This document shows positions 881 through 58,499 of a stretch of 58,499 bases of DNA, in pieces. Under the pieces are notes generated by a model, which saw only the letters and a list, made by a program, of their open reading frames with translations, had not been told where the DNA came from and did not search any database. Origin of the DNA: a virus (Duplodnaviria; Caudoviricetes); the IMG/VR virus record IMGVR_UViG_3300046011_001509, positions 1-58,499 of that record; one strand, given 5' to 3'. Each line of letters starts with the position of its first letter. The stretch's first letter is position 1. The position numbers and the translations under genes were made by a program.

Positions 881-909
881 TTGCATGCAACTTTACCTTT
901 TGGGATAAT
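881..909 (+). promoter_or_regulatory. Sigma70 promoter (PR-like) for the cro operon
   Basis: TTGCAT(881-886)-17 nt-GATAAT(904-909) with extended TG; predicted TSS falls at about the ATG916. Confidence 0.7.
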
Positions 910-915
910 GCCGCT

Positions 916-11360: not shown

Positions 11361-12166
11361 CGACACAGGTAGAGGGTGCTGACTTCTTGATTGAGGATGC
11401 GGTGGAGAAGTATGTCACTGAGAGGTGCCCTCAGTTGAAGCATGGCAAGGGCTGCGCCTTGGAGCTTCAGGACTTGATGCCGTTCTTTGTTGGGCGACCA
11501 CTGTCAGCACTGGTGGATGTGTGCAAGACCATCAGGCTGAAGGCGGTCAAAAGAAACGGTGAGCCGCTTGCGCCAGCCACCATCACCAACAGGATCAGAT
11601 ATCTGACTGCTGCATGTAGGTACGGCTGGAAGCATCACAGTATGGGCAAGCATGACCCTGCTGCCGGGGTTGTAACTCCTGTGGTTAAGAACCAAAGGAA
11701 TAACTACATCACCCGCAAGGAGATGCTTCAGGTTGCAATGCGAGTTGATAACCGGGAGGCACGGGCTGCAATCCGAGTCCTGTTTTATACGGGAATGCGA
11801 ATCGGTGAACTGCAACGCGCTGAGATTATCGGCAGCGCCTATGTCCTGAGAGACACCAAGAATGGCGACCCAAGAATCATCCCGATACACCCAAAGATAC
11901 GGTGCTGCCTAAAGTATTCAGTCCCGTCAAAGTTCACTGTGCGCTACCACCTGTACCTGCACAAAGAGGTCGTCGGGATACCTTGGGTTCACGTTCACGA
12001 CATACGGCACTCAGCCGCCACAGCAATGATTGAGTCTGGGGTTGAGGTATATACCGTAGGCGCTGTGCTTGGACACAAGTCTTCTGCCAGCACAAAGAGA
12101 TACGCGCATCACTCTATCGGGAAACTGACGGAAGCAATAAATTCAATCGGGAGGAAAGTGGCATGA
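11198..12166 (+). CDS. int: Tyrosine integrase
   Basis: TGMRIGEL, TKNG, HDIRH, LGH, RY catalytic set. Confidence 0.95.
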   Translation: MSIYRDKKRGCFVFEFSRTIEGQRVRTTKSLPRAWNQAQADAYDRQESAKLYAIATQVEGADFLIEDAVEKYVTERCPQLKHGKGCALELQDLMPFFVGRPLSALVDVCKTIRLKAVKRNGEPLAPATITNRIRYLTAACRYGWKHHSMGKHDPAAGVVTPVVKNQRNNYITRKEMLQVAMRVDNREARAAIRVLFYTGMRIGELQRAEIIGSAYVLRDTKNGDPRIIPIHPKIRCCLKYSVPSKFTVRYHLYLHKEVVGIPWVHVHDIRHSAATAMIESGVEVYTVGAVLGHKSSASTKRYAHHSIGKLTEAINSIGRKVA

Positions 12167-12589: not shown

Positions 12590-12850
12590 ATGCGGTTTGC
12601 CATAGTGATTACCCTTGCCCTGCTTGGCTGCTCAAAGGAGACGCCAAAATCTAATGCGCTCAACGTTGAGCGCATTGCGCCAGAGCCGCAGCGCACACTT
12701 CAAGTGGGAACCAACCAACTCATCTCGGTACAAATCCCCGGACAAGAGTGGCACTCCACCCAGAAGTGCTACATCTTCCGCGACTTGGAGTTCAAGACAT
12801 CCAGCATAAGCTGCCCAGCCGGGGCTACTGGGAAGATCGAACCGGACTAG
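12590..12850 (+). CDS. Small lipoprotein
   Basis: MRFAIVITLALLGC lipobox; beside attP. Confidence 0.75.
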   Translation: MRFAIVITLALLGCSKETPKSNALNVERIAPEPQRTLQVGTNQLISVQIPGQEWHSTQKCYIFRDLEFKTSSISCPAGATGKIEPD

Positions 12851-38505: not shown

Positions 38506-38709
38506 CTAGTCGGACTCGGCTTGCACTGTCTCTTGTTGACCAAGGGACAGAATCTGTTTGATAGCAGAGATACGTCCCCGGAGTCGAGACGTTGCTATCG
38601 CATCAAGCTCACCATCGTTTTGTTGACGGCAAGCTTTGAGTTGTTCGTTAAGGTGTGCGTCCAGACGCAGCCAAACGGCTGACTGGCGCTCTAATTCACT
38701 GAGCTTCAT
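38506..38709 (-). CDS. Small protein between portal and scaffold
   Basis: RLRGRISAIKQIL. Confidence 0.65.
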   Translation of the reverse strand: MKLSELERQSAVWLRLDAHLNEQLKACRQQNDGELDAIATSRLRGRISAIKQILSLGQQETVQAESD

Positions 38710-41066: not shown

Positions 41067-41076
41067 ATTTGGTCGT

Positions 41077-41100
41077 AAAAAAACCACCTCATGGGTGGTT
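41077..41100 (-). terminator. Terminator-like hairpin before the portal gene
   Basis: AACCACC-loop-GGTGG followed by T7 on the minus strand. Confidence 0.6.
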
Positions 41101-44463: not shown

Positions 44464-45378
44464 TCATGACCTCGCAGTTCCAACAATGTCGTTGGGGGTG
44501 TTTGTGGCGTCCGTTGTTCCTACCCCGATAAGGGCACTTCCAGTAACCAGCCGGAAATCTTCAGACCCGCTTGTTACATTGACAAATGTTGCAGTGCTGA
44601 ACGGAATTGATCCAGTAAAGCCGGAATGGGGTGATGTATCGTCTGAGGCGCATGTTGTGGTCGTAGAGCCTGACGAATTGGCATTGGTTAAATCATTTGG
44701 GAAACCGAAAACAGCACAATTTCTAACGGTTGTTGCGCTGGAATAATCTAAAGCGATTCCTGCTCTGGAACCATTATTATCAAAACGAACTACTGTGCAA
44801 CCATAGACATTTGCATTGCCTGCAACGCTAACTCCACCCACTGACACGGCAGCACCGCTGGGCACAACAATAAGCGAGTTTTTTAGTATGCCATCTGAGA
44901 TAGCTGTAGCGGCTGGTGTTCCTTTGCCATACAGAATGCATGCGTCTTGTACCGTACCCGTCCCGCTGATATTTGTTGCGCCTGTACTACTTGCAGCGAC
45001 CCCTGTGGACTTGATCTGTAGATTAGACAGTCTGAAATAGTTTTCAGTAGCAAGCACCGTGAAGACATATCCACCACTCTGCGTTATGGCAACACCGTTC
45101 GCTTGGTTGTAGCGCAGGGCATTTGTCAGCTTGTTGGCGTTATCCGCAAAACTCTCGCCTGCCGCTGCTGTCAATTCTTTGTAGCGAGTGGAATCAGAGG
45201 TGGACCCTGCTACGGTCAGCATGGTTGTTGCTCCCGTGAACTCGGTATCGTTGTAGCATTCGCCACGCCATATCTGGTCAGCCGTTACAAGGTTTGCAGG
45301 CGCGGAGTCTTCCCACGCTTGCAGTGTCGAGTAGTCTCGGCTTGATGTTCCAATGGAATGAACGACTGTAGTTGCCAT
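44464..45378 (-). CDS. Beta-helix (pectin-lyase-like) structural protein, N-terminal half
   Basis: RDYSTLQAWED N-terminus; DFRLVTGSALIGVG...DIVGTAR C-terminus (choice-of-anchor-Q-like), truncated by TGA. Confidence 0.65.
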   Translation of the reverse strand: MATTVVHSIGTSSRDYSTLQAWEDSAPANLVTADQIWRGECYNDTEFTGATTMLTVAGSTSDSTRYKELTAAAGESFADNANKLTNALRYNQANGVAITQSGGYVFTVLATENYFRLSNLQIKSTGVAASSTGATNISGTGTVQDACILYGKGTPAATAISDGILKNSLIVVPSGAAVSVGGVSVAGNANVYGCTVVRFDNNGSRAGIALDYSSATTVRNCAVFGFPNDLTNANSSGSTTTTCASDDTSPHSGFTGSIPFSTATFVNVTSGSEDFRLVTGSALIGVGTTDATNTPNDIVGTARS

Positions 45379-45380
45379 GT

Positions 45381-45791
45381 TTAGTCAAACACGTTGGGAT
45401 CAGCCAGTGGTGGCTTTTGTATTTTCAGGGCCGCTATGTCTTGCGCTGACATTGAGGTACGGGCAGTCGGGTTGCGCCGTTTAACATCAGCCATTACCGC
45501 TGCAACGCTGGCGGGGAGGTTATCCAAGTCCAGCTTAAATCCACGCGCCTGTAGCATCATGCTTGGGTTTAACGGGTCAATCTCAGGCTCAGAACTAAGA
45601 AACGTGGTGACCATAGTTACCGGGACACCCGGTAGCTTGACGATGCGCCACGCTGGGTTCTTTTGTTCTTGCTTACCCCACACCCACCCGTCAGGCTGCA
45701 CAACGATCACGTCACCGCGCTTGGTGCATTTAGCGTCCAAGTACGGGTCTGCGTTGATCTTGTCAACGACCCTGACCAGTAGCTCTGCCAT
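45381..45791 (-). CDS. Hypothetical protein
   Basis: KRGDVIVVQPDGWVWGKQE. Confidence 0.7.
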   Translation of the reverse strand: MAELLVRVVDKINADPYLDAKCTKRGDVIVVQPDGWVWGKQEQKNPAWRIVKLPGVPVTMVTTFLSSEPEIDPLNPSMMLQARGFKLDLDNLPASVAAVMADVKRRNPTARTSMSAQDIAALKIQKPPLADPNVFD

Positions 45792-46228
45792 CAGACATAC
45801 GCCTCTGACCAGCCGTCATAGTGCTGGACGATGTTGCCGAATTTCAGTTCGCACAGTTCCATGAGTCGTGCCAACAGTGCATCGTATTCAGCGTCGATCT
45901 CTGGGGCCACGTCAGTGATGCCACCGTGGTCTGCTGTCAGGCCCATAGGGGTGCGGTGCGAGTAAACGCAATGCGCCATGCAGTTGTCTTCAAGCGCAGT
46001 GATGCGATGCTTGACGTTAGCTTTGATAAGCACCCAGTTGCGCCCATCCTGCGCCCGCTTGATAGCGGACTGCTTGACCGTATCGTCATCGTTCAACGAC
46101 TCCACGCGAACAGAGCCACGCACCACATAGGTGGTGTGGTCGAAGTTGTGGGTATGGCCGTTAACTACCTCGCCAGCCTTTTGGAATGGCATTTCGCGCA
46201 AGTAAATATTGCCGCTGACATATTCCAT
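45791..46228 (-). CDS. Cupin-fold protein
   Basis: GHTHNFDHTTYVVRG...IKANVKHRITALED. Confidence 0.75.
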   Translation of the reverse strand: MEYVSGNIYLREMPFQKAGEVVNGHTHNFDHTTYVVRGSVRVESLNDDDTVKQSAIKRAQDGRNWVLIKANVKHRITALEDNCMAHCVYSHRTPMGLTADHGGITDVAPEIDAEYDALLARLMELCELKFGNIVQHYDGWSEAYV

Positions 46229-46552
46229 TTAGACCACCCGCAGTTGTTCGTAACGCAGCACTGCAAGCACTTGCAGCATCGCCATGTTGAGTGATGTGTC
46301 GGCACCCAGCGGCAATGCCGTTTCGGGGTCTATCAGAGGGATTGGGTCATTGCCAGCGTTTGGCATGTCGAGTTGTCGGTGCAACGGCAGCAAGTCTTCA
46401 ATCTTGCGTACCGTACCGTCTGCCAGTTTTACGGCTAGTGATTGATCAATCTTGACACTAGGCAACAGGTTGTTGTCTGGATAGTCGATAGTGATCTTGT
46501 GGGCGCGGACGTATGGCGCACCTACTTGCGAAGGGTCGTAATTAACGGTCAT
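46229..46552 (-). CDS. Hypothetical protein
   Basis: 107-aa ORF in the operon. Confidence 0.65.
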   Translation of the reverse strand: MTVNYDPSQVGAPYVRAHKITIDYPDNNLLPSVKIDQSLAVKLADGTVRKIEDLLPLHRQLDMPNAGNDPIPLIDPETALPLGADTSLNMAMLQVLAVLRYEQLRVV

Positions 46553-46631
46553 TTATAGCTCCAGACTAGATAGACGAATACTGCGAGGGCGAGGATGTAG
46601 GTCAGCCAGAATAGGGCTGCTGCGCGGGTCA

Positions 46632-47114
46632 TTACGTTGCGCTGAGTACGCCTGAAGGAACGGTGACCGTTAGGGTGTTCCCGCTTGTGGTGATAGCGAT
46701 GTTTGCACCACCAGAGTCACCAAGGAAGTGGCCCACGATAGGGTTCAGCTTTCCGTTCAATGTTCCGCTTGCGTATAAGACGCCGTACTTCCACGCTGGA
46801 ATACCAGTACCGTCTGCGGTCCATGTTGGGCTTGGTCCAGTGAATGTAAAGCTCACGTTGTTTGAGCCACCCAGTGCGGTGGAGTCCCCAGTTACAGTTG
46901 CGCCGCCATCTGCGTAGGCGGTCTGACTACCTAAAGCCACCTGATAGGTTGATACATCACCCCACAACTCGTTGCCAGCGTCTCCGTTGTTAGGAGTCCA
47001 TCCTGATGTGACAAGAGCCAGCTTGTAGGTGTTGTTGGTTGCGTCAAGTAACTTCGTTGCGTTGAAGAAGTTCAGCTTTGATTTATTAGGGAAGATGAAA
47101 GGTCCGGCGGCCAT
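46632..47114 (-). CDS. Structural (fibre-associated) protein
   Basis: YKLALVTS...YADGG...PTWTA...GVLY...GNTLTV. Confidence 0.7.
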   Translation of the reverse strand: MAAGPFIFPNKSKLNFFNATKLLDATNNTYKLALVTSGWTPNNGDAGNELWGDVSTYQVALGSQTAYADGGATVTGDSTALGGSNNVSFTFTGPSPTWTADGTGIPAWKYGVLYASGTLNGKLNPIVGHFLGDSGGANIAITTSGNTLTVTVPSGVLSAT

Positions 47115-47188
47115 GATTTACTCCTTGTTGATTCCGAATAGTGCGTACATAAAGATGTAGCCGATGATGGTTAGGATGGTCAGGATGC

Positions 47189-47704
47189 TCATGCCAGCTT
47201 CGCTTTCAGCTTACTCAGCGCATCATTCAGGCTGTCAAGCTGCTTCTGCTTCGATACGATGTCAGACTCAACCACAACCAGCACAGCCTTGGCTTCGCGC
47301 AGTTGATACTGGACACCAGTCACATCATCAGTGACCTTCTTCAGTTCGCTCTTGGCTGCGAGGATGATCTTGTCGGACTGCTCGTTCGCTGCCTTGACAG
47401 CGTCAACAACGATGTGGTCAGCTTCCGCCAATGCCGATTGAGTTGCAGCATCTGCCCTAGCCTTGGCGTCTGCGACATAGTTGTCAGCGTCGAGTCGCTT
47501 GCCTTCAGCTTGCAGGATCAAAGAGGCGAGTTCTGCTTGTACGGCATCGCGCTCCTTGACAGCTTTATCTAGTGCTGCGGCAGCTTCCTTGGCAGCGTTG
47601 TCAACAGAACCGATAGAGTCCAGTGCCTCTGCTGCAATCTTGAAGCCCTCCAGCAGCTTGGATGCGCGGCGAATGGCGTCTGCCGCCTCGTTAAAGTTGC
47701 TCAT
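47189..47704 (-). CDS. Coiled-coil protein
   Basis: Ala/Lys-rich heptads. Confidence 0.7.
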   Translation of the reverse strand: MSNFNEAADAIRRASKLLEGFKIAAEALDSIGSVDNAAKEAAAALDKAVKERDAVQAELASLILQAEGKRLDADNYVADAKARADAATQSALAEADHIVVDAVKAANEQSDKIILAAKSELKKVTDDVTGVQYQLREAKAVLVVVESDIVSKQKQLDSLNDALSKLKAKLA

Positions 47705-48075
47705 TGGTAAGCCTTTCGCATGCAAATAGTGACTGTCAGATTGGTTGTGCCGTCACCCGCAGTCACCTTGGGGCGAACGTAACGTGGAAGCTCCAGTAGC
47801 TGCTCACCGCCCAGCGCGGTCTTGGTCACAGCGTTCCCTTGTGGATCAGCGAGGGGGAACCAGTCCGCTGCTACGACTCCACCGATGTTGGAGCCTTCCA
47901 GAGTGACAGAGCCGCCAACGCCTAGAGTGCCTGTGAGTTGGAAGCAGCGGTCAGCGTACTCAACCCACTGCACTGGTGATCCATCGTCTAGGTTCAGCAA
48001 TCCCGTCCAAGTGACGAGAACCGCTGCGTTGCTGTCTGATACGGTTCGATCAAACGTTGCACTTCGTGTTGCCAT
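47701..48075 (-). CDS. Small beta-sandwich structural protein
   Basis: VTLEGSN...WFPL...PRYVRP. Confidence 0.7.
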   Translation of the reverse strand: MATRSATFDRTVSDSNAAVLVTWTGLLNLDDGSPVQWVEYADRCFQLTGTLGVGGSVTLEGSNIGGVVAADWFPLADPQGNAVTKTALGGEQLLELPRYVRPKVTAGDGTTNLTVTICMRKAYQ

Positions 48076-48083
48076 GCTGTCTC

Positions 48084-49358
48084 CTACGTCCCGAACTCGG
48101 GATCAAATGCCTCGAAAGGCGTGATGTGAATGTGCGGTCTTTCGTCGTCGTTCGTCATCATGTCTGCACATAGCGACAGATAACGCCAGTTGTCAGCACC
48201 ATGCGAGTATTCGTCGTGCAGTGGTGCGCCGGGTTCGTTTGTTGTGCTGTTGACTGATCGTCTGTAGCGCTTCAGGCACTCGACTAGCCTGTCGGTCTTG
48301 CCCTTGTTAAACACGGCTTGACCCAGAGCCATGCGACCCGACTTGATGCCGTTCTCAATCGACTCATTTGGCACAGGCTTCACTGTGCGACCAAACGCCT
48401 TCAGGATTTGCTCTGCGCTCTTGCCGCTCTTGAAGTCTTTGTGATACCCATCGTGGGGCAGGAAGTCGAAGCCCCAGTTGTACCTGCGCTCCTTGATCTC
48501 TGCGACATAGCTGTCAAGGGTGCGGTGGCTGTCTTCGATGTAGTCAATCACTCTAAGCTCTGAGCGCACACGCTGCACAAAGCTCACAGTCATTGAGTCG
48601 TTCCAGCCCAAATCCCAAACGGTGTGGACCTTCAGCTTGGGGTCGTAAGGGATGAAGCACACACGCTGCTCACGCTGCGCTGTGTCTATCTCCTTGGCAT
48701 AAATCGCACCCACCACGGCAGAGCGGCACTTGCCTTCCCAAATAGTGGGGTAGTCATCAGGGCTGGCAGCTAGGCAGTGCTGGCGCTCAAGCTCCAGAAC
48801 CTCACCAAACCACGGGTTGTCTTGCCAGTTGACTTCTACTGCCATGCAGTGGTCTGGCTTGTTGACGATGAAGCGCTTGTATGTCTCGTCGGTGTCCAAC
48901 TCTGGGTTCAAGCTCACCCAGATTTCTGAGCCGGGGCGGCGAATCGTGGGTGTCAGCACGTCCCATGACTTCTTGCTGACCGATTGACCTTCCTCTACCC
49001 AGCATATGTCCGCACCCTCAAAGGACTTGATTGAGTCCACGGTGTGCTGTGAGAGGCCAGAGAAGCTAAAGGTCGTGCCGTTCTTTCCTCTGATCTCCGT
49101 CTCCAAGACTTCGTAGAAGCTTGACAGGTTTAGGTCACGGATGCGGTCACTCAGGAGCCTATGGACAGACTCTTTGATGGACTTCTGCACCTCACGCGCA
49201 CAGATGATACGGGTCTGCTCCTGCGTACCCATGACCAGCAAAGCCGTGGCAAACGACCACGATTTTCCCGACCCCCGTCCTCCATAGGCCACCTTCAGTC
49301 TATGTGGCTCAAACAGGAAGCGCAGCTTCTTAGGAAGCTCTACCGCAGTTTCAGACAA
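48084..49358 (-). CDS. terL: Terminase large subunit (PBSX family)
   Basis: YGGRGSGKS Walker A, CWVEE Walker B, WDLGWND nuclease, HGAD. Confidence 0.96.
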   Translation of the reverse strand: MSETAVELPKKLRFLFEPHRLKVAYGGRGSGKSWSFATALLVMGTQEQTRIICAREVQKSIKESVHRLLSDRIRDLNLSSFYEVLETEIRGKNGTTFSFSGLSQHTVDSIKSFEGADICWVEEGQSVSKKSWDVLTPTIRRPGSEIWVSLNPELDTDETYKRFIVNKPDHCMAVEVNWQDNPWFGEVLELERQHCLAASPDDYPTIWEGKCRSAVVGAIYAKEIDTAQREQRVCFIPYDPKLKVHTVWDLGWNDSMTVSFVQRVRSELRVIDYIEDSHRTLDSYVAEIKERRYNWGFDFLPHDGYHKDFKSGKSAEQILKAFGRTVKPVPNESIENGIKSGRMALGQAVFNKGKTDRLVECLKRYRRSVNSTTNEPGAPLHDEYSHGADNWRYLSLCADMMTNDDERPHIHITPFEAFDPEFGT

Positions 49359-49824
49359 AGCTCACCTTCAGGCTGAAGTCGATTGGAGCGCCGTCCTTGC
49401 CGGTGATTTCCTGCTCGGTCTTATCGCGCCAGCGTCCACCTTGTCGATTGCGAAGCCAAAGGCTTGCTGCCGTTGTGTCTGGAGGGTAATGCTTAATCAG
49501 GTGCGTCTCAACGATCTGATTCTGAATAACCTTGATATCCACCTCTGGATGCGAGTAGCCTTTTGCTCGGTGATATAACGATTCCGCTATATCGGAGTCA
49601 GCAATTACCTTTCCAAGGCGTATGGACTCAAGAAATTCTGGGTGAGCAGTCTTCCAAGCGTTTAGTGTTTGCTCTGAAACTCCAAAGAAGTCAGCCATCT
49701 CGCCATCTGTGAACCCAAGCAAACAAAGCTTTCTGCCTTGCTCTGCATATTCTGGCTTGTAAGCGCTTGGCCTACCTACTGGCGCAGCCTTAACAGCAGG
49801 CTTCACAGCCTTCTTGGTAGCCAT
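49351..49824 (-). CDS. terS: Terminase small subunit
   Basis: GRPSAYKPEY...ADFFGVSEQTLNAWK...HYPPDTTAASLWLRNRQ. Confidence 0.9.
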   Translation of the reverse strand: MATKKAVKPAVKAAPVGRPSAYKPEYAEQGRKLCLLGFTDGEMADFFGVSEQTLNAWKTAHPEFLESIRLGKVIADSDIAESLYHRAKGYSHPEVDIKVIQNQIVETHLIKHYPPDTTAASLWLRNRQGGRWRDKTEQEITGKDGAPIDFSLKVSFV

Positions 49825-50330
49825 TAGACCAACTCTCCCTTGCGGGATGCCACTCGGCGTTGAGTTGCTACGGCAGCAGCTACCTCTGGGCTGTATGAAG
49901 CAAGTCCATAGGCGACTATCTGCTTCACTGCGTTTGAGCCAACCCCTAGCTTTCGTCTTACATCAACAATTGTTTTGAACTCATCCAACACAGCGGAGAC
50001 TTCAACCGCCCTGCTTCTCAAATAGGCTTCGTTCTTCTCTTTGTTTTGCTTGGCAAGCTTTGCTTTACCAGCATCTGACATTTCATGGGTTTTCCCGGCG
50101 TTGTTCTTGGAATTTTCAAGACACCGTAAAGTCGCTGCCGCTTTGTAGTCCGGGTCTTGCAGTGCCCGTCTCTGCGAATCAGCTATCCGGGTAGAGAGTT
50201 CGTCATCAACCAACGCTTTCGTCTTTAGCAATCCAAACTCATGCCTATACTCGGCTGGGGTAATCTTGTGCTTGTGCTTTACATGAACCCCAAGCGCAAC
50301 AAAATCCCTCTGGCAAATCAGGCAGCGCAT
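49824..50330 (-). CDS. MucR/Ros-family zinc-finger protein
   Basis: CLICQRDFVALGVHVKHKHKITPAEYRHEFGL...ALV. Confidence 0.75.
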   Translation of the reverse strand: MRCLICQRDFVALGVHVKHKHKITPAEYRHEFGLLKTKALVDDELSTRIADSQRRALQDPDYKAAATLRCLENSKNNAGKTHEMSDAGKAKLAKQNKEKNEAYLRSRAVEVSAVLDEFKTIVDVRRKLGVGSNAVKQIVAYGLASYSPEVAAAVATQRRVASRKGELV

Positions 50331-50331
50331 C

Positions 50332-50559
50332 TCAGTGATCCACCACAAGCATCTGCGACTCAAGGGATGGAAAGGTTCCGAGGTTCTTTTGCAGGCCAGT
50401 CAGACCAGCATCTTGGCGTTGCATCAACTCGTCCATGCGCTTCAACAGCAGATAACCGACTTGGTGCGCGTTGGAACGCTGGTCAAAGTCCGTATCCATT
50501 ACGACTTGGGACTCTACTGCGCCATCCACATCGTCCAGAGTGATTGTGATCTTTGGCAT
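50332..50559 (-). CDS. Hypothetical protein
   Basis: 75-aa ORF. Confidence 0.6.
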   Translation of the reverse strand: MPKITITLDDVDGAVESQVVMDTDFDQRSNAHQVGYLLLKRMDELMQRQDAGLTGLQKNLGTFPSLESQMLVVDH

Positions 50560-50868
50560 TTACGCTCTCCGACCTTGTGACATTTGTTCGGCTGGTGAGC
50601 CTCTTACGCTCTGGAATCCATTGGAAAAGGAGTCAACAGCTTCTTGCTCACCATCCATCATTGGAGCCTGCTCTTCTGCGGGTCCACCAGAAAGCATCTG
50701 CTTGGCAGCGTTCAGCGCTTCATCAATGCTGGCAAAGATTGAGCCTTCAGCTTTGTCTTCAGCCATGTCAGCTTGACCCATCTCGCCACCCATAGGCTCG
50801 GCTTCACCTTCAGGGGCCACCTCAAAGGTGCCGTCTTCTAGCGCGGTGATGCAGATGGTTTGAGACAT
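50560..50868 (-). CDS. Acidic hypothetical protein (first late gene)
   Basis: 102-aa ORF. Confidence 0.65.
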   Translation of the reverse strand: MSQTICITALEDGTFEVAPEGEAEPMGGEMGQADMAEDKAEGSIFASIDEALNAAKQMLSGGPAEEQAPMMDGEQEAVDSFSNGFQSVRGSPAEQMSQGRRA

Positions 50869-50884
50869 GGTGGCTTTCAAGAAT

Positions 50885-50907
50885 AAAAAAGCCAGAGCTA
50901 GTCTGGC
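50885..50907 (-). terminator. Terminator ahead of the late operon (tR'-like)
   Basis: GCCAGA-loop-TCTGGC followed by T6 on the minus strand. Confidence 0.65.
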
Positions 50908-51215
50908 AAGGGTCAGACAGGGGGACTGACCACGGGGAGGTAATGGGTGCGGGGTGCGGGTCTTTGTGTACAGGTACGGATAAAGGATGATTCCCGACCC
51001 CTACATAGGTTGGAACAGAAGGCTTGCATAAAGCAGCATTCAGTTAAACCGTATCAACAACAAGAGATATCAAGTTACACGGCGCTAACCCGTGTCACCT
51101 TCAGTTCCAAAAAAGCCGACTGAGCCAGATGGCTTGTTTGGAGACACCTATCCAAAAACACGGTTGGGCATCTGTTGCTGTTACTGGAACACCCAGTATT
51201 TCTTGCCTTGCACAC

Positions 51216-51243
51216 ATTTTACCTATTTATTGCACATTTGCAA
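51216..51243 (-). promoter_or_regulatory. Putative late promoter (PR'-like)
   Basis: Minus strand TTGCAA-16 nt-TAAAAT, followed by terminator hairpins. Confidence 0.5.
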
Positions 51244-51251
51244 CATCCCTC

Positions 51252-51280
51252 TTGACATATTGTTGAGTCTTTGGTAAATT
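51252..51280 (+). promoter_or_regulatory. Sigma70 promoter for the replication leader
   Basis: TTGACA-17 nt-TAAATT with extended TG. Confidence 0.8.
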
Positions 51281-51289
51281 CTCTTCATC

Positions 51290-51396
51290 GACCTTGGCAG
51301 GAAGATGAATCCAGACCCCTTTGGTCTTAGCTTCCTAGCCCCTCACCGGGCGTCACCACCTGCCAAGTGGGGAGCTAAGAACCAAAGGGGTTTTTT
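51290..51396 (+). ncRNA. Structured leader RNA / attenuator
   Basis: Long stem 51315-51335 pairing with 51369-51391 plus U-tract; loop CCTGCCAAG complementary to upstream CTTGGCAGG. Confidence 0.6.
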
Positions 51397-51725
51397 GCTT
51401 TCTGGAGCCAGAACCGAAGTTCGTCTGGCACGAAGTGGGACTCAGAACCCAGCCAGAACCCAGTTGATTGACTTGAATGTGGGCGGGCTTAACAGCGTCA
51501 ACAGCGCATCAAGTGAGTAGCGGTACTGGTGGGAAAAGGTCTGCAACACCGCGCAGATGGGTGGCGAAGCTAGTGCCCATGACCTGAACGACTGGCGGGT
51601 GTCGAGTGTCCGTACTGGATTTTGACTGAAGGCTTTTCTCTTTATTGAGGAAAGGCTAGGTGCGCTCGGAACCGTTTGGATTAGAGGTTTCTTAGGTAAG
51701 TAGTTACTAACAAGGAGTAAGTTGA

Positions 51726-52121
51726 ATGAACGATCTTCCAAGCTATATCGACCCCGAACTGTGGGCTGGGTTCCTTGAATCACGCAAGGCAATGAAAGTC
51801 CCGTTTACAGACTTTGCCAAAAAACTGACCCTGAAGAAGCTGATGGGCATGTATGAAAACGGCTGGTGCCCGAACTCTGCGCTGGAGAAAAGCATTACCC
51901 ACGGTTATAGGGGCGTTTTTGAGACTGACCGCCGTGATGCTGGGCAAAAGATGATTGGTCAAAGTCAGCGCACCTACCTTGAGAGCTTCAAGGAGCGCGA
52001 CACCCGGATAGCCCAGCAGCGCTGGGAAGAGATGACTGGCCTAAAGCACCCGGGCAACAGCCATCCTGACTTTATTGACGTAATCGGTTCCAACCAACTG
52101 TTTCTGGAGGTGCAGCAATGA
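51726..52121 (+). CDS. Replication initiator C-terminal-type domain (no N-terminal HTH)
   Basis: LPSYIDPELWAGFLESRKAMK...SITHGYRGVF resembles the C-domain of phage replisome organisers; SD AAGGAG. Confidence 0.65.
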   Translation: MNDLPSYIDPELWAGFLESRKAMKVPFTDFAKKLTLKKLMGMYENGWCPNSALEKSITHGYRGVFETDRRDAGQKMIGQSQRTYLESFKERDTRIAQQRWEEMTGLKHPGNSHPDFIDVIGSNQLFLEVQQ

Positions 52122-52534
52122 TCCGCGCTATTGACCGCTTGTTCCACCGATTGGGGGCTACCTACGGAGCAGAATGGGACCGTTCACTGGGCGCAACTCC
52201 AATTGGAGACGCCAAGACTGTATGGGCGCATGAACTGTCTTGCTATACAAGCAACCTGCAATCCATCGCATGGGCACTGGAGAACCTGCCAGAGCGCTGC
52301 CCGAACGTCATCCAGTTCAAGAACCTCTGCCGCCAAGCCCCTGCGGCAGCTACCGAGATGCTGCCAAGCCCGAAGGCTGACCCAGCCATTGTCAAGATGA
52401 TTACCGAGAAGCTGGCGTCTGCACCAGTGCATCAGATTGGTAGACACGACTGGGCTAAGTACATCCTGCAAAACCCAAAGGGACGCACACCAACTGTGAT
52501 CCATATGGCTAAGAACGCACTGGAGTATGCATGA
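52118..52534 (+). CDS. Lambda P-like helicase loader
   Basis: IDRLFHRLGATYG...WAHEL...PNVIQFKNLCR. Confidence 0.7.
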   Translation: MIRAIDRLFHRLGATYGAEWDRSLGATPIGDAKTVWAHELSCYTSNLQSIAWALENLPERCPNVIQFKNLCRQAPAAATEMLPSPKADPAIVKMITEKLASAPVHQIGRHDWAKYILQNPKGRTPTVIHMAKNALEYA

Positions 52535-52665
52535 CCTACTCAGAAGCAGTTGTAATCCTCTCCCGGGTCCGCGCCGGGGACAAGTCACCCACATCATTGC
52601 AGATTAACCAAGCGCTCGTGCTGACGGGCGACTTGGAAGGCGTGAACCTGCAACTCGCAGACTAA
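52531..52665 (+). CDS. 44-aa hypothetical protein (MTYSEAVVILSRVRAG...ALVLTGDL)
   Basis: Manual read; ATGA-coupled, SD GGAG. Confidence 0.6.
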   Translation: MTYSEAVVILSRVRAGDKSPTSLQINQALVLTGDLEGVNLQLAD

Positions 52666-52851
52666 CCCACAGGCTCACCCGTTGAGCCTACGCATCGTTC
52701 ACACGCAGGACATGCGCGATCCCGCATCGCATAAATCCAAATCAGTTGCACACGTAATGCGCGGGACTTGAAACCCATGTTGTTGCGTTTTTGCAACATG
52801 ATCGTTTCATTGGGGAATTCACATTATTTTGAACTTTTGTTGAAATATCGC

Positions 52852-52880
52852 TTGACTGCTTGTTTTCCTTTTGGTAAAGT
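52852..52880 (+). promoter_or_regulatory. Sigma70 promoter for the early small-gene block
   Basis: TTGACT-17 nt-TAAAGT with extended TG and AT-rich upstream element. Confidence 0.8.
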
Positions 52881-53152
52881 TCAACCCATCGAATCGCATC
52901 GTCGGTATCGAAAGCCAGCAAAAACGGCGACCCGCTCTCAACGGCGGCATAGAAAAGAGTTGACGCCCTTGCATCCCCATAACAACGGGAAGCGGCCTAC
53001 AGCAGCAATGCTGGCCTCAAAGCGACGGTGTGAAGAGTGGCCCGGTAACGGCTACAGATGGAACCCAACGGGATATGCCATTGACCTACCTCTCACAAGA
53101 GGACAGGAGCATGGGTACTCGTTGTGAGTGTCCATACCACTGGAGATGAACC

Positions 53153-53314
53153 ATGAGCAGAAAGCACTTTGTAGCCCTAGCGTCAGAAATCCACAAAATC
53201 CAAGACGATGCCTCTCGCCGCGCCGCAGCAATTGCAGTTGTCGCTGCATGCCGCCAATTCAACGGCGCGTTTGATGCAGGCCGTTTCTATACAGCTTGCG
53301 GGGTGGAGATATGA
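53153..53314 (+). CDS. 53-aa phage early protein (MSRKHFVALA...FNGAFDAGRFYTACG)
   Basis: Manual read; SD GGAG; N-x2-F-D-x2-R-F-x2-A-C motif typical of phage early proteins. Confidence 0.7.
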   Translation: MSRKHFVALASEIHKIQDDASRRAAAIAVVAACRQFNGAFDAGRFYTACGVEI

Positions 53315-53505
53315 GCCTCCGTCTTATCCGCACAGAGAAGTCAAACGGCGACACACACATCGCCAAGATTTATCGCAATGCTGAGTACGACGAATACGTT
53401 GTCAAGTTCTACCGCGATGGCGTCTACCAAGTCGATGCCGACTACTTCACTGACGACATCGGCGATGCGATCTCCACGTCGACCCACTTCACATCAAACA
53501 AGTAA
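53311..53505 (+). CDS. Hypothetical early protein
   Basis: AKIYRNAEYDEYVVKF...ADYFTDD..DA. Confidence 0.7.
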   Translation: MSLRLIRTEKSNGDTHIAKIYRNAEYDEYVVKFYRDGVYQVDADYFTDDIGDAISTSTHFTSNK

Positions 53506-53514
53506 GGAGCAGAT

Positions 53515-53721
53515 ATGTACCAAGGACATTGTGCAGACGGCAGCAGCATCCAGAAACATAGCTGCGGTGCTTTGTACCCACTTGTGCTTGTGTACACAGA
53601 GGGTGCAGGGTATTACTTCCTTTGCCCAGATGGGTTGGAACTCAAAACCATCAGCGGCGATTTTGAAACTGCGCACAAGGTAGCAGATGCTTACAACGGG
53701 TTGAAAAGCGTACTGCACTAA
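53515..53721 (+). CDS. Hypothetical protein
   Basis: SD AAGGAG. Confidence 0.65.
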   Translation: MYQGHCADGSSIQKHSCGALYPLVLVYTEGAGYYFLCPDGLELKTISGDFETAHKVADAYNGLKSVLH

Positions 53722-53777
53722 AGCTCAGCCTATTGCCAGCGATGGCAATGGAGTGTGTTTTACCCAAGGAGAACAGC

Positions 53778-53969
53778 ATGATTGATATGGGACAAGCTGA
53801 TAGCTCATTACGCCGCAGACAACTCAGCGAACAAAGCCTTGTTTGCTGGACTGTAGCGCTCAAAAGAGCCGCAGAGCAGATGGGGTTCAAGCATTACATG
53901 GACGTTCCAATGGAGCGCGATGAAGAGTTGCGTTCTCTGGCACACGAAATACGGGGGACAGTCGTATGA
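53778..53969 (+). CDS. Hypothetical protein
   Basis: SD AAGGAG. Confidence 0.6.
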   Translation: MIDMGQADSSLRRRQLSEQSLVCWTVALKRAAEQMGFKHYMDVPMERDEELRSLAHEIRGTVV

Positions 53970-54127
53970 AGTACATCCAGCGAAACGGACAAGGCTACCT
54001 TGAAACCGTTGATGAGTTCACGACTTACCGCGAGGCCCGGGACATGCTCAAGGAATACCGCATGTCTGACCCAAGCGCTCACTACTACATCAGCCAGCGT
54101 TGCTGTGCGAATTGGAGGCAATCATGA
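53966..54127 (+). CDS. 53-aa hypothetical protein (MKYIQRNGQGYLETVDEF...SQRCCANW)
   Basis: Manual read; ATGA-coupled at both ends. Confidence 0.65.
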   Translation: MKYIQRNGQGYLETVDEFTTYREARDMLKEYRMSDPSAHYYISQRCCANWRQS

Positions 54128-54333
54128 AACAACCACGCTACTACGCCCTACGTTGCTATGCCAGCACGGGGTTCCCAAAGTTCTATGACTCATTCAAGAC
54201 GCTCACTCTGGCACGACAGTGGGCGAAGCAAGCACTCAAGGATGGGTATCACACAGTCGAGATTCTGCGGGATCAACCCCGGAAGGTCGGCTACTTCGGA
54301 ATTGAACGTGAACTACTGGAGACACTGCAATGA
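54124..54333 (+). CDS. Hypothetical protein
   Basis: SD GGAGG; coupled. Confidence 0.6.
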   Translation: MKQPRYYALRCYASTGFPKFYDSFKTLTLARQWAKQALKDGYHTVEILRDQPRKVGYFGIERELLETLQ

Positions 54334-54563
54334 AGATCATTGGCTACACCTATGAGGCAGACGTTCACTGCCCTGCTTGCACACTGAAGGCCACCGAGCA
54401 TCCGTATGCATGGATTTCAAACCCGGTCCCGCTGCGAGATGAGCATGGCATCTTGCAAGATGCAGTTGACCGCGAAGGCAACACTGTGCGTCCAGTCTTT
54501 GACATTGACGAAGACCCGGATGGTTCTGTTACCCACTGTGGCGATTGCCACGAATCACTCTGA
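54330..54563 (+). CDS. Zinc-binding hypothetical protein
   Basis: HCPAC...HCGDC. Confidence 0.65.
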   Translation: MKIIGYTYEADVHCPACTLKATEHPYAWISNPVPLRDEHGILQDAVDREGNTVRPVFDIDEDPDGSVTHCGDCHESL

Positions 54564-54611
54564 CCCTACCGCATTGCATCCTATGGGTGCAATCCAGTGG
54601 AGTTACTAACC

Positions 54612-54632
54612 AACCGCTTCGGCGGTTTTTTT
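54612..54632 (+). terminator. Terminator-like hairpin
   Basis: AACCGC-TTCG-GCGG followed by T7. Confidence 0.7.
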
Positions 54633-54649
54633 ACGACTGGAGGTCAATC

Positions 54650-55156
54650 ATGGGATGGTCATTTGAAATTCGTGAACGTAGCCGCAAAGACTTTATCGAG
54701 AGCCTGACCGGAGATAGACACTTCAGCGAAGACTACAAGGCGCTGGAGTACCGAGTCGTCGGCAACCATGTGTGGCAGCTTGTCCGTCAGGTGTCTGCGA
54801 ACCGTGTGTTCATCTGCTTGGACCTGATCGCCAAAGAGCGTGGCGGCGGCTGGGGCTACAAGGGCTTGAGCGAAGACATGGGACCGTACACCTATGACTG
54901 CCCATTGGCGCTGCTGAATAAGGCATCTGAGCCTATCAACGAGAACGCAAAGGAATGGCGTATCAAAGTGCGTGAGTTCCACGCCAAGAAAACAGCCAAG
55001 CGCAAACCAGCGGCTGGGATTGTCGTCAAGTCTGGCTCTCACCAGTACGAACTGCTTGAGCCATGTGCGCCCCGTAAAGGCTGGCGCGTCAAGGACATTG
55101 AGACTGGCGCTACCTACCGTATGCCAGCAGCACAACTATCGAGGGCGTTGGCATAG
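54650..55156 (+). CDS. DUF6927-like protein
   Basis: MGW...WGYKGLSEDMGPYTYDCPLALL...AKEWR. Confidence 0.7.
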   Translation: MGWSFEIRERSRKDFIESLTGDRHFSEDYKALEYRVVGNHVWQLVRQVSANRVFICLDLIAKERGGGWGYKGLSEDMGPYTYDCPLALLNKASEPINENAKEWRIKVREFHAKKTAKRKPAAGIVVKSGSHQYELLEPCAPRKGWRVKDIETGATYRMPAAQLSRALA

Positions 55157-55175
55157 CGCCATTCACAACAGCATC

Positions 55176-55202
55176 AGCCACCTACGGGTGGTTTTCTTTT
55201 TT
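55176..55202 (+). terminator. Terminator-like hairpin
   Basis: GCCACC-TACG-GGTGG followed by a T-rich tract. Confidence 0.65.
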
Positions 55203-55213
55203 AAGGAGTAATC

Positions 55214-55666
55214 ATGGGAACAAGAGCGCGAGTCGGAATCGTCAGGCCAGACGGCAGCATTATCAGCATCTACACCCACTGGGATGGCTACCCAGCGCAC
55301 CATGCACCCATCCTGCTGGGCCACTACGACACCCCTGAGAAGATGGGCGAACTGCTGGCTCTGGGTGACTTGTCTGTGCTGGCCGAAAACATCGGTGAAA
55401 AGCAGGACTTCGATGACCGCGACCACCGCGACTGGTGCAAGTCCTATGGCCGTGACCGTGGCGAAAAAGACTGCAAAGCGAATCTCAGCCCAAGCACCAC
55501 CGCATTTGAGCAATCAGCCCATGACTGCGGAGCAGAGTATGTCTACCTGCTTGATGGTGGGGGGTGGATTTACAGCGAAGTGCCGATGTACGCCACGCAG
55601 TCATTCCACTACGGCGAACTGAAAATTCCGGCTCCACGGCCAGACACCATTAGCGACCCGTATTGA
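55214..55666 (+). CDS. Conserved phage early protein
   Basis: MGTRARVG...SIYTHWDGYP...LALGDLSVL...YGRDRGE...EYVYL. Confidence 0.75.
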   Translation: MGTRARVGIVRPDGSIISIYTHWDGYPAHHAPILLGHYDTPEKMGELLALGDLSVLAENIGEKQDFDDRDHRDWCKSYGRDRGEKDCKANLSPSTTAFEQSAHDCGAEYVYLLDGGGWIYSEVPMYATQSFHYGELKIPAPRPDTISDPY

Positions 55667-55765
55667 TATGAACCGACACCGACTGCTGAATTTCACCCTT
55701 GGGGCTGTGTACATCGCAGCCCTTTTTGTTTTGTACCTTGACGTTTTTATTTTTAGGAGTTAATC

Positions 55766-56758
55766 ATGGCCGCACTACTCGACGAATCAAACAGCCAATT
55801 CAACATCGCCTACGTTGGTGACGTTCCTTGGCATGGCAACGGACAAGCGCTGGAGGCTGGTCAGTCCATCGAAGTCTGGGCGAAAGCCGCAGGCTTGGCA
55901 CACGAAGTCAAGCGCACCATCGTGCAGTTCCACAACGGCAACGAAGTCGCACTCTACGGGGACCGCGAAGTGCTGTACCGCAGCGACACACTGCAACCAC
56001 TGGGTGTGGTCGGCAACAAGTACAAGATCGTTCAGCCTGCACAGGTGTTGGACTTCTTTGCGAAGCTGGCGCAGAACAACCACTTCCAGATTGAGACGGC
56101 TGGATCACTTGCTGGTGGTCGCCGCATCTGGGCATTGGCAAAGGTCAGCGATGGCGCTCCTGTGCTGGGTCAGGATGTGGTCAAGCCTTACGTCCTGCTG
56201 GCTACGTCTTATGACGGTACGTTGGCTACCACTGCCCGGTTCACTACGGTGCGGGTTGTGTGCCAGAACACACTTGGCTATGCCACCGAAGAGGCAGGCG
56301 ACACCGTGAAGGTGCCACACAGCGCAGAGTTCGATGCAGACGCTACCCGCTTGGACTTGGGCATTGCATTCTCTGGCTTCGACAAGTTTTTGTTCGATGC
56401 TCGCAAGCTGGCAAAGCGTGAGGTCAATGAAACCTTTGCGATTGAGTTCCTGAAGCAGTTGCTGCCTGACACCGTGAGCGTGAAGACCGAGAAGGATGGA
56501 CGCCGCACAGTCACCCCTGTACCAGCGGAAGAGACGAAGGCATTCGCCGCCATCTTGGACTTGTTCAAGGGCAATGCGCTGGGTTCAGGATTGCCTGAGT
56601 CCCGTGGTACTGCATGGCAGTTACTCAACAGCGTGACCCAGTACACGGACCACGTTGCAGGACGCAGCGTTGACACCCGCCTGTCATCGGCATGGTTCGG
56701 TCAAGGCAATGCACTGAAGTCTCGGGCAAGGGACCAGTTGCTGGCGGTGGTGGCGTAA
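55766..56758 (+). CDS. DUF932 / phage-plasmid-like protein
   Basis: PWHGNG...ETAGSLAGGRRIWALA...TSYDGT...VRVVCQNT...GTAWQLLNSVT. Confidence 0.88.
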   Translation: MAALLDESNSQFNIAYVGDVPWHGNGQALEAGQSIEVWAKAAGLAHEVKRTIVQFHNGNEVALYGDREVLYRSDTLQPLGVVGNKYKIVQPAQVLDFFAKLAQNNHFQIETAGSLAGGRRIWALAKVSDGAPVLGQDVVKPYVLLATSYDGTLATTARFTTVRVVCQNTLGYATEEAGDTVKVPHSAEFDADATRLDLGIAFSGFDKFLFDARKLAKREVNETFAIEFLKQLLPDTVSVKTEKDGRRTVTPVPAEETKAFAAILDLFKGNALGSGLPESRGTAWQLLNSVTQYTDHVAGRSVDTRLSSAWFGQGNALKSRARDQLLAVVA

Positions 56759-56796
56759 ATCAATGGGGCTTCGGTCCCTTTCCTTTTGGAGGGTCT

Positions 56797-57027
56797 ATGG
56801 AAAGCACTGTCGCAGGCATCCCCTGCATCATCAATGTGACCTACTACTTCAAGCAGGAACCGCTTGGCCCAATGTGTGATAGCGACTTGGATTGCTATGG
56901 ATACACGGAGATTGAGTTTGAAGTCTGCGACAGGCGTGGCAGGCCAGCACCTTGGCTGGAGCGCAAGCTGACGCAGGAAGAGAAAGAGCGCATCGAAACC
57001 GAAATAGAGGAGTATCAAAGTGATTAA
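56797..57027 (+). CDS. Conserved phage protein
   Basis: VAGIPC...EVCDRRGRPAPWLERKLT. Confidence 0.7.
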   Translation: MESTVAGIPCIINVTYYFKQEPLGPMCDSDLDCYGYTEIEFEVCDRRGRPAPWLERKLTQEEKERIETEIEEYQSD

Positions 57028-57292
57028 GCAACTACCAGCCTACCTGCTGTATAGCGAAGACTACAAGGGCAACCCGCAATACATCTTGTCGCTTTGCGAG
57101 TTGAAAGTCGCAGGCTACGTCACCGTCAACCAGCAGCAGTTCGACGTTGAAATTCCAGACGACTTCGATCCCCGCAAGCTTCAAGTGGAGGCGCTGCGCG
57201 AAGAGAAGCAACGCATCAGCGCAGAGTTCGCAAGGCGCTGCACCCAGATTGAAGAGCAGATAAATAAGTTGACTGCCTTGGAGTACACATGA
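57020..57292 (+). CDS. Hypothetical protein
   Basis: SD GAGGAG; C-terminal coiled coil. Confidence 0.65.
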   Translation: MIKQLPAYLLYSEDYKGNPQYILSLCELKVAGYVTVNQQQFDVEIPDDFDPRKLQVEALREEKQRISAEFARRCTQIEEQINKLTALEYT

Positions 57293-57507
57293 CACAAATC
57301 ATCAACAACACAGGTGGCTTCGTAGAGCGCGTCACCATCGACCGGGTTGACGCACTACCCGGGAGTTTTCACATCCATGTGGAGATGCAGTACGCCGACT
57401 CTCGCAACCCTGATGCATGGCGTACCGTCTACCGTACAACATGTGAGCAGTGGGCGCTGGAGTCTTTTGGACGCGAAATCTATGAGGCTGTGGTTCAATC
57501 AGAATAA
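57289..57507 (+). CDS. Hypothetical protein
   Basis: SD GGAG; coupled. Confidence 0.6.
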   Translation: MTQIINNTGGFVERVTIDRVDALPGSFHIHVEMQYADSRNPDAWRTVYRTTCEQWALESFGREIYEAVVQSE

Positions 57508-57517
57508 GGAGTAATTT

Positions 57518-58396
57518 ATGCCGATCAAAGTGTTTTATGACCCCCGTCAGTCCTGCGAATCGGCAAACAGCTACAGCCCATCAGCCGCCAAGCCTGCGAA
57601 GGTTGTGGCTGATTGGTTGAGCGATGAGCGCATTGCTCCACACATCCAAATTGAGACGTTCAACAAGGCCACGGATGATGTCCTGTGTGAAGCGCATGAC
57701 CCGGCGTACATCGCAGGCATCTTGGACGGTTCAATCGACAACGGCTTTGGAAACAATAGCCCAGAGATCGCAGAGTCCCTGCGCTACACCGTAGGCTCTA
57801 TGCTGGCTGCTGCGAAGTACGTCTTGAACAAAGACCTCTTCAATGAAGAGCGCGTTGCTGTGTCTCCGACATCTGGTTTCCATCATGCGGGTCACTCGTT
57901 TGGTGGTGGCTATTGCACGTTGAATGGCTTGGTCATCACGGCGAAACGGCTAAAGACGTTGGGGCTTGTGAACCGTGTGTTAATCCTAGACCTTGACCAA
58001 CACTACGGCAACGGTACACAAGACATCATCGACACGCTGGGGCTTGATTGGATCACCCACATCACGGCAGGCAAGTCGTATGACACGGCAAGAGATGCGC
58101 TATCACATTGCTGGCTTGCGAAGGAGTATGCACCTACCGGACGTAATCCGCATGACCTTTTACTGTATCAGGCTGGTGCTGACATTCATGTGGACGACCC
58201 GCTTGGTGGGCGTATGACGACTCAGCAAATGCAAGAGCGTGACAAAGCCGTGTTCCTTTGTGCATCAGGATATGGGTTGCCATGCGTGTGGAATCTTGCT
58301 GGCGGCTACAAGCGTGATGCACAAGGGACGATTGAGCCAGTGCTTGCACTGCACCGCCAGACCATGCTGGAGTGCATCAAGCAGTATCCGGGGTAA
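57518..58396 (+). CDS. Zn-dependent histone deacetylase (HDAC/AcuC) family amidohydrolase
   Basis: GFHHAG, GGYCTLNG, DLDQHYGNGT, YQAGADIHVDDPLG, LAGGY; SD AAGGAG. Confidence 0.93.
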   Translation: MPIKVFYDPRQSCESANSYSPSAAKPAKVVADWLSDERIAPHIQIETFNKATDDVLCEAHDPAYIAGILDGSIDNGFGNNSPEIAESLRYTVGSMLAAAKYVLNKDLFNEERVAVSPTSGFHHAGHSFGGGYCTLNGLVITAKRLKTLGLVNRVLILDLDQHYGNGTQDIIDTLGLDWITHITAGKSYDTARDALSHCWLAKEYAPTGRNPHDLLLYQAGADIHVDDPLGGRMTTQQMQERDKAVFLCASGYGLPCVWNLAGGYKRDAQGTIEPVLALHRQTMLECIKQYPG

Positions 58397-58499
58397 GGAT
58401 ACACAAATGTGGTATATGCCAGTCGAGATAAGGTGACTAACATTGCCCCTTCAAGAAAATAGGATAAAAATGAAAACAGGAATCTCGTGGGGGGGGGAT
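58372..58499. repeat. Terminal direct repeat / circular overlap, copy 2
   Basis: Matches 1-129 with G9 instead of G10. Confidence 0.97.

Follow-up and report, generated by a model that had tools for sequence, protein, structure and literature searches.

Reversible acylation ranks among the major layers of regulation in bacteria, and phage-encoded writers of acyl marks are known, these including GNATs such as Rac and spermidine acetyltransferases. Our literature search retrieved no paper on the function of a phage-encoded eraser of the classical (zinc) histone deacetylase (HDAC) type; the parts of PMC7824862 drawn upon here mention GNATs and sirtuins only, and the biochemistry found on viral HDAC-fold enzymes concerns only the acetylpolyamine amidohydrolases (APAHs) of giant viruses. 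The closest described relatives of the gene reported here are class IV (HDAC11-like) enzymes, which form cluster 5 of Graf et al. 2024 (PMC11532494). Clade B of this class, to which human HDAC11 and Leptospira interrogans HDAC11 (9GZ5/9RJD) belong, comprises long-chain fatty-acyl-lysine deacylases marked by HPFD in loop L1, Glu94 in loop L2 and the gatekeeper Phe141 (Novakova et al. 2026, PMC13325672, sections 13 and 15), an F141T mutant having been built to probe specificity (section 13). In clade A, Arg replaces Pro in L1, Gly stands at position 94 and the gatekeeper is Thr; it includes chrHDAC11-1/A (9RJE), and the eukaryotic members presented in the same paper are organelle-targeted (PMC13325672). 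Vibrio cholerae HdaH (VcHdaH; 9GKV/9GKY), assigned to sub-cluster 5b in PMC11532494 and to clade A in PMC13325672, displays weak de-decanoylase activity only, according to both papers, and in VcHdaH as in HDAC11 the foot-pocket RPP motif is replaced by G-aromatic-HH (PMC11532494, section 15). Here we describe a related gene in IMG/VR record IMGVR_UViG_3300046011_001509, a Caudoviricetes sequence of 58,499 nucleotides that was analysed over its whole length and is hereafter called the window: positions 57518-58396 of its plus strand encode a 292-amino-acid protein predicted to be a compact, class-IV-like Zn-dependent deacylase of the HDAC fold.

The gene can be taken as genuine and the encoded enzyme looks catalytically intact, as judged from its open reading frame (ORF), Pfam, an AlphaFold2 model, Foldseek and a family profile. 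A first-pass annotation made from the sequence alone had claimed an intact HDAC-family gene with all hallmark residues and a strong Shine-Dalgarno sequence, and both claims stand. The motif AAGGAG (57506-57511, plus strand) lies 6 nt 5' of the ATG start. The protein matches Pfam PF00850 (Hist_deacetyl) with E=3.5e-32 and 112.4 bits, the cut-off being 27.9, and the match is also recovered at the DNA level, while PHROGs and NCBIfam gave no family match. Its catalytic set is complete, with H122-H123, D160 and H162 (DLDQH), D222 (GADIH) and Y264 (AGGY), the definitions of the His-His dyad, zinc ligands and Tyr following the Fig. 1 legend of PMC11532494. All six residues occur together in 158 of 159 aligned relatives (78/79 viral, 79/79 bacterial and the window copy), the sole relative lacking the full set being that of locus L066, whose gene runs off the contig end. 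The structural model, built on 24 relatives, reached a mean pLDDT of 90.6 and a pTM of 0.91, and its Foldseek comparison with the PDB returned 485 matches at E<=0.001, all of the matches listed being HDAC-family structures. That the protein has lost catalysis and keeps the fold only for binding or as a scaffold would have a precedent in class IIa HDACs, which use the fold with low activity (PMC11532494, introduction), and would accommodate the shortened rim loops described below; nonetheless, we find it barely credible, given that none of the catalytic residues varies within the family, not even the Tyr, which is missing from class IIa enzymes. Because the catalytic residues are conserved, the product would be expected to act as a cytoplasmic zinc amidohydrolase that hydrolyses an N-acyl amide and releases the carboxylate (acetate to medium-chain acid); D160, H162 and D222 would hold Zn2+, the H122-H123 dyad would serve as general base/acid and Y264 would polarise the carbonyl.

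Judged by sequence, the deacylase is a member of a lineage of compact proteins, about 290 residues long, that branches beside class IV (HDAC11/VcHdaH-type). In phmmer searches its best matches among solved structures were 9RJE (E=2.5e-24) and 9GKV (E=4e-19), and the five top Foldseek matches were class IV, with TM-scores of 0.77-0.79 for 9GKY/9GKV and 0.80 for 9GZ5. The family profile scored 103 bits on 9GKV, 97 on 9RJE and 71.5 on 9GZ5, compared with at most about 65 bits on a single HDAC6 domain and at most about 50 on class I, HDLP, HDAC10 and APAH chains. In addition, residues 118-123 read TSGFHH, i.e. the G-(F/Y/T)-HH motif instead of the RPPGHH type. In five host-like genomes, further PF00850 paralogues scored 186-297 bits against the Pfam model versus 70-91 for the genomes' own compact-family copies; three of these paralogues were classified against the PDB as class-II-like (5JI5, E=5.7e-111), APAH (9GKZ, E=3.4e-120) and VcHdaH-like (9GKV, E=1.5e-96). 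Rhodoferax lacus (L184/L186) and Deefgea chitinilytica (L173/L175) each carry two compact-family copies besides canonical HDAC paralogues. A 51-row tree from an IQ-TREE 'quick' search, which contained no class I or clade B sequences, groups the 40 compact-family rows together (SH-aLRT 92), with three VcHdaH-like paralogues as their sister group (joint branch 97*) and the class-II-like and APAH sequences elsewhere. Since this tree lacks class I and clade B, the compact lineage could sit just outside class IV rather than within it; it may also already fall in one of the Graf sub-clusters 5a-5g of PMC11532494.

The marks of the named groups are found in the compact family to a limited extent. Its L1 motif reads S-P-S-A (S20 in 147/159, P21 in 153/159 and S22 in 159/159 sequences) and its gatekeeper is Phe in 158/159, which departs from clade A; of the clade B marks it holds the Phe gatekeeper only, L1 being SPSA and L2 a shortened NGFGN with no acidic residue. 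As to APAHs, the deacylase scored 44.5 bits with 3Q9B (APAH) and 45 with HDAC10, over the core 120-172 or 35-168 only, compared with 405 bits to 9GKZ for the true APAH of a host-like Rhodoferax genome; in PMC11532494 APAHs make up Graf cluster 4/1c-d. Many relatives bear the JGI label 'acetoin utilization deacetylase AcuC-like enzyme', an identity that we rejected on the score of at most about 50 bits to HDLP/class I, the benchmark AcuC being a class-I-like sequence of Graf sub-cluster 2c (PMC11532494). As for the acuABC/acsA context of AcuC, the AcuA, AcuB and AcsA families were absent among the neighbour families listed for 150 viral and 144 bacterial flanking proteins, our tables of flanking families giving the 25 most frequent ones.

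The differences from the solved enzymes concentrate around the active site. Aligned with clade-A-like paralogues, the compact family is missing about 10 residues of L2 (RRIGFPW is replaced by NGFGN) and about 20 residues after the zinc DxH strand, including the NFPxRK loop, and it shows SPSAxKP at the position of the class IV L1 motif together with a Phe gatekeeper. Because these altered loops are those forming the active-site rim, substrate recognition in the compact family probably differs from that of clades A and B. VcHdaH resembles the phage protein in its single domain of about 300 residues, its G-aromatic-HH motif, zinc ligands and GGY tyrosine, and it is the best match both in structure and to the profile (single domains), but identity is only 25-26%, and VcHdaH-like proteins carry H-x-(F/Y)-P..KY where the phage family has SPSAxKP, a longer L2 and the NFPxRK loop. 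The best phmmer match, chrHDAC11-1/A, possibly shares a Gly at the L2 'second selectivity filter' position, although it differs in its Thr gatekeeper (GGTHH) and in its L1 motif. The clade B enzymes, i.e. Leptospira and human HDAC11, have the Phe gatekeeper in common with the phage family but match it more weakly in sequence, and their HPFD and Glu94 do not occur in it.

We tentatively favour an acyl-lysine on a protein as the substrate of the deacylase, a preference that stops just short of an even chance. Acyl groups would then be taken off the lysine residues of a protein, be it of the host (or of the phage), in the course of infection or lysogeny, and the enzyme would act as a stand-alone 'eraser' for host takeover or counter-defence, in no need of a phage-encoded writer. 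Pointing in this direction are the Phe gatekeeper, common to the peptide-active clade B, and two fused relatives among the ten longer ones scanned, namely P0172 (394 aa), which joins an N-terminal SAP DNA-binding domain to the deacylase, and P0065 (479 aa), which carries a C-terminal TY-Chap3 peptide-binding chaperone domain; the extensions had no Pfam match in seven of the other eight, P0145 showing a sub-threshold TPR only. Several observations weigh against a protein substrate. Each of the two fusions is represented by one protein. The closest solved relatives by sequence, 9RJE and 9GKV, are clade A enzymes, and clade A is described as inactive on acyl-lysine peptides, non-peptide substrates being suspected (PMC13325672). 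In NGFGN, the invariant G76 falls opposite the Gly of IGFPW in clade-A-like paralogues and may stand at the position of clade B's peptide-positioning Glu94. Moreover, other phages keep the deacylase among nucleotide-metabolism genes (YfbR-like HD, ThyX, RNR, with HNH nearby too), a neighbourhood in whose tally ten rows are near-identical contigs and which is at least equally compatible with a metabolite role. Finally, among the families listed for the 150 viral and 144 bacterial flanking proteins there was no conserved writer or substrate partner.

A close rival to an acyl-lysine substrate is a non-peptide acyl-amine, such as an acetylpolyamine, an N-acetyl/N-acyl sugar or nucleotide-linked amine or an N-acyl signal, which would make the deacylase an auxiliary metabolic or signal-quenching gene; we hold this to be possible, if doubtful. 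To the kinship with peptide-inactive clade A, one member of which co-purified with hexanoate (PMC13325672), to the possible Gly at the Glu94 position and to the nucleotide-metabolism neighbours it adds that the shortened L2 and NFPxRK rim loops suggest a recognition unlike that of the peptide-active enzymes, and that giant viruses have functional acetylspermidine amidohydrolases and phages spermidine acetyltransferases (PMC9992855). This reading is opposed by the same Phe gatekeeper where clade A has Thr, by the SAP and chaperone-domain fusions, by the 44-45 bits to APAH and HDAC10, which cover the core motif only, and by the finding that, among the flanking families listed, no conserved biosynthetic or transport partner adjoins the gene. 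The first-pass annotation had also suggested that the enzyme frees polyamines. This is weakened, and polyamine deacetylation in particular appears less likely, because APAH and HDAC10 are only distantly related to the protein and the host-like Rhodoferax genome has an APAH of its own. The giant-virus APAHs of Klosneuvirus, Tupanvirus and Hyperionvirus, whose activity has been shown, belong to the same superfamily, although they are APAH-type proteins of about 345-354 aa that, with an APAH query, were found only in Imitervirales (Li et al., PMC9992855), whereas the phage protein is class-IV-like; Foldseek matches to giant-virus HDAC-fold proteins in BFVD reached TM-scores of 0.64-0.74 at 16-18% identity.

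Returning to the favoured acyl-lysine eraser, a bolder extension would regard the compact SPSAxKP/NGFGN/SGFHH proteins as a third, phage-adapted class IV lineage that erases a host acyl mark, on protein or metabolite, of a stress, signalling or anti-phage response. We consider this unlikely; if true, these would be the first classical-HDAC-type counter-defence or takeover enzymes in bacteriophages. Class IV clade A enzymes are currently without a known natural substrate, a question that could become experimentally tractable with a phage homologue that is small and soluble, has a simplified rim and offers infection as a read-out. A recurrent phage enzyme of 'eraser' type with no published role constitutes, in our opinion, a moderately interesting and well-supported case.

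The functional interpretation given in the first-pass annotation is borne out in part. Its idea that the enzyme reverses an acetylation-based host defence is neither backed nor contradicted by our results. The first-pass annotation had further proposed that the enzyme removes marks set by GNATs of the phage itself. This part of the proposal found no counterpart in the genome, as none of the 77 window ORFs matched an acetyltransferase family (Pfam, E<=1e-3, 21 families being matched in all) and a rescan of ten mid-sized ORFs at E<=0.05 also returned none. The families listed for 148 proteins flanking 20 bacterial copies from the window's clade likewise included no conserved partner; within 6 kb of these copies there were two integrase and two excisionase matches, and no structural-gene family among those listed. 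The wider bacterial flanks (144 proteins) held Ham1 (4), WYL/WCX (4), VWA (3), integrase (2), transposase (2), TOTE primase (1) and Macro-domain (1) matches. We also noticed one family of PafBC-like WYL-domain regulators (318-381 aa) at about 0.1-4 kb from the bacterial deacylase in 11/80 genome loci, these loci representing several families (L083, L091, L093, L101, L112, L130, L131, L132, L145, L156 and L159).

Relatives of the deacylase are widespread. Searching a 90%-clustered protein collection yielded 3999 proteins at E<=1e-5 among 5337 candidates, the best 120 being 53-100% identical and mostly of about 290 aa, and a profile search of 1.84 billion representatives yielded 527 at E<=1e-30, 3316 at E<=1e-10 and 11,377 at E<=1e-3, so that the compact lineage itself amounts to some 527 clusters at 50% identity. 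In IMG/VR a relative is encoded in 190/225 candidate stretches, on contigs ranging from a few kb to 390 kb and including 40-kb temperate phages; among species-representative genomes at least 577 of 600 candidates encode one, and among these bacteria Burkholderiales (Rhodoferax, Rubrivivax, Polaromonas), Gallionellaceae, Lysobacterales and Myxococcota predominate. Of the ESM-Atlas clusters, the nearest has 105 members, 71% of them viral, and the next two are mostly bacterial. On the other hand, the gene had been called unusual phage cargo, and among deposited phage records this is indeed the case: only 4/50,697 match, corresponding to three distinct phages, i.e. two very large uncultured ones and Rhodococcus phage E3, which is filed twice (HM114277.1/NC_021347.1). 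Gp202 of phage E3, a cultured phage, is annotated as 'putative histone deacetylase protein', is of similar size and lies amid small unknown genes, but it is only 30% identical, and E3 is an actinobacterial phage of 142.6 kb; our literature search turned up no functional work on gp202. In BFVD, matches at E<=0.001 were limited to five giant-virus HDAC-fold proteins and one phage fragment of 113 aa.

The refuting case named in the first-pass annotation, a one-off capture nested among host genes, is contradicted by the loci themselves. Eight of the 80 viral loci kept share the order deacylase followed by an opposite-strand helix-turn-helix (HTH) gene (L003, L004, L049, L054, L057, L058, L059 and L061), and seven of them (all save L054) have homologues of the window's NinB-to-SSB block downstream (NinB, YbcO, RecT, exonuclease or SSB, depending on the locus); the position is thus kept while their deacylases are only 37-61% identical to that of the window. 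A FastTree phylogeny of 159 rows, derived from 160 loci by dropping L003 and L140 (in-frame stop or X), contains at least 13 changes between viral and genome labels, 7 of which are forced by starred branches, together with large all-viral clades, e.g. of 27 and 21 rows. In the 51-row tree the window copy falls in a 98* clade of 13 rows, 6 of them bacterial (Rhodoferax and Ramlibacter among these), the other viral rows being L004, L039, L057 and L058 of the syntenic lineage, L067 and L071. The phylogeny against host HDACs that had been put forward as a check shows a compact clade separate from host paralogues in which phage and bacterial copies interleave. Because of the synteny in eight loci, the repeated label changes combined with all-viral clades and the mixed 13-row clade, the comparison of sequences shows the deacylase to be more than a one-off capture. 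Selection has kept the gene in phages, and a lineage of lake-water temperate phages, whose hosts are probably Comamonadaceae-type bacteria, carries it as a conserved accessory gene.

The same interleaving of copies, and the 6 bacterial members of the window's own clade, would also be compatible with a passenger (moron) traded between Comamonadaceae-type genomes and phages that has a cellular function and no specific role in the phage cycle, the more so as the surroundings of the bacterial copies vary and resemble islands, with integrases, transposases and WYL regulators nearby. In L003 (9995-10900), the closest syntenic viral relative (61% identity), the deacylase gene is interrupted in frame by a stop codon at about residue 14, which is either a sequencing error or the sign of an N-terminally disrupted copy, in which case it would favour a passenger too. 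We nevertheless deem a mere passenger improbable, since it is at odds with the constant map position in divergent phage contigs, the intact catalytic residues of 78/79 viral copies, the large all-viral clades, and the translational coupling of the gene to its neighbours along with its strong Shine-Dalgarno sequence. In locus L041 (5880-8678), another phage related through portal, terminase and head genes, a deacylase homologue of 44% identity is flanked by a scaffold-like and a major-head gene, so that the gene has switched modules.

The window spans the entire IMG/VR record, which bears the label linear and to which CheckV assigns a completeness of 78%. Its right end (58372-58499) equals its left end (1-129) except for a run of G9 versus G10, the left copy taking in the final 25 nt of the deacylase gene and the first part of the intergenic region that follows. 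Furthermore, a separately built contig of 26,049 nt from run X1 matches 55700-58497 without a difference and then runs into the window from about position 126 onward; X1 is perhaps the window's own source sample, in which case the bridging contig is not independent of it. Because the ends overlap by about 128 nt and the X1 contig bridges the junction, the genome is circularly permuted or terminally redundant, measures about 58.4 kb and is probably complete, the 'linear' label and the 78% completeness being probably underestimates due to the G9/G10 mismatch. An artefactual position of the gene, with the contig simply stopping after it, was ruled out by the overlapping ends and the contig across the junction. 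With the record ends joined, the deacylase is followed by a convergent gene (363-1163, minus strand) for a repressor-like HTH protein of 266 aa that has no Pfam match of its own; the HTH of an S24-peptidase CI-like protein from L049 shares 48% identity with its residues 114-174, and homologues of the 266-aa protein lie 3' of the deacylase on the opposite strand in the eight related viral loci. Past this gene runs a plus-strand operon with NinB, RusA, YbcO, RecT, YqaJ exonuclease and SSB, and a tyrosine integrase is encoded at 11198-12166 (plus strand; PF00589, E=2.7e-14). The integrase and the repressor-like gene support the earlier assignment to a temperate phage.

The deacylase closes a plus-strand block of about 51.3-58.4 kb. 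The earlier description of it as the last gene of the block was borne out only once the record ends were joined across the junction, and the 'early' timing ascribed to this block is an assumption. At its end, a 90-aa ORF (57020-57292, plus strand; phrog_2479, unknown function) opens a coupled trio: its stop is overlapped by 4 nt by the start of a 72-aa ORF (57289-57507, plus strand) directly 5' of the deacylase, which follows after a 10-nt spacer holding the Shine-Dalgarno sequence. The deacylase would thus be made as the last product of this trio, ending a block that converges on the HTH gene. The 72-aa ORF has no Pfam or NCBIfam family, and a jackhmmer search of 511 upstream ORFs found homologues in only six other loci (L004, L082, L059, L086, L054 and L061), all of them in or near the phage's own lineage, for which reason we rejected it as a general partner of the deacylase. 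The same accessory block includes a DUF932/TIGR03299 'phage/plasmid-like protein' of 330 aa (55766-56758, plus strand), with homologues upstream of the deacylase in L003, L004 and L082. Terminator-like hairpins are in excess at 50300-58499 (15 versus 8.1 +/- 2.9 in shuffles, both strands), which suggests moron-like units or an antitermination-controlled operon; several of them lie between plus-strand genes, e.g. at 54612, 55176, 55701 and 56765.

The minus strand carries the terminase, portal, major head and tail genes together with an ORF of 3326 aa (12847-22827), whose C-terminal portion of about 900 residues matches phrog_14770, 616 and 10691, profiles of unknown function and about 2800-3900 aa; weak homologues exist in L027 and L060, and the product may be a giant virion or injected protein. 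At 38706-41087 (minus strand) and in neighbouring genes, the portal and adaptor match SU10_portal and SU10_adaptor, the YuA_Gp49 family being matched too, and the association of an SU10-type portal and adaptor with a lambdoid-style NinB/RusA/RecT/integrase module is an unusual combination. A megablast search with 45000-58499 against the 50,697 phage records gave no match. The stretch occurs in four runs, all of them lake-water metagenomes, and no RNA run was among those listed; besides the probable source run, low-depth pieces of 99+% identity were recovered in two studies, X2 (7 contigs) and X3 (4 contigs).

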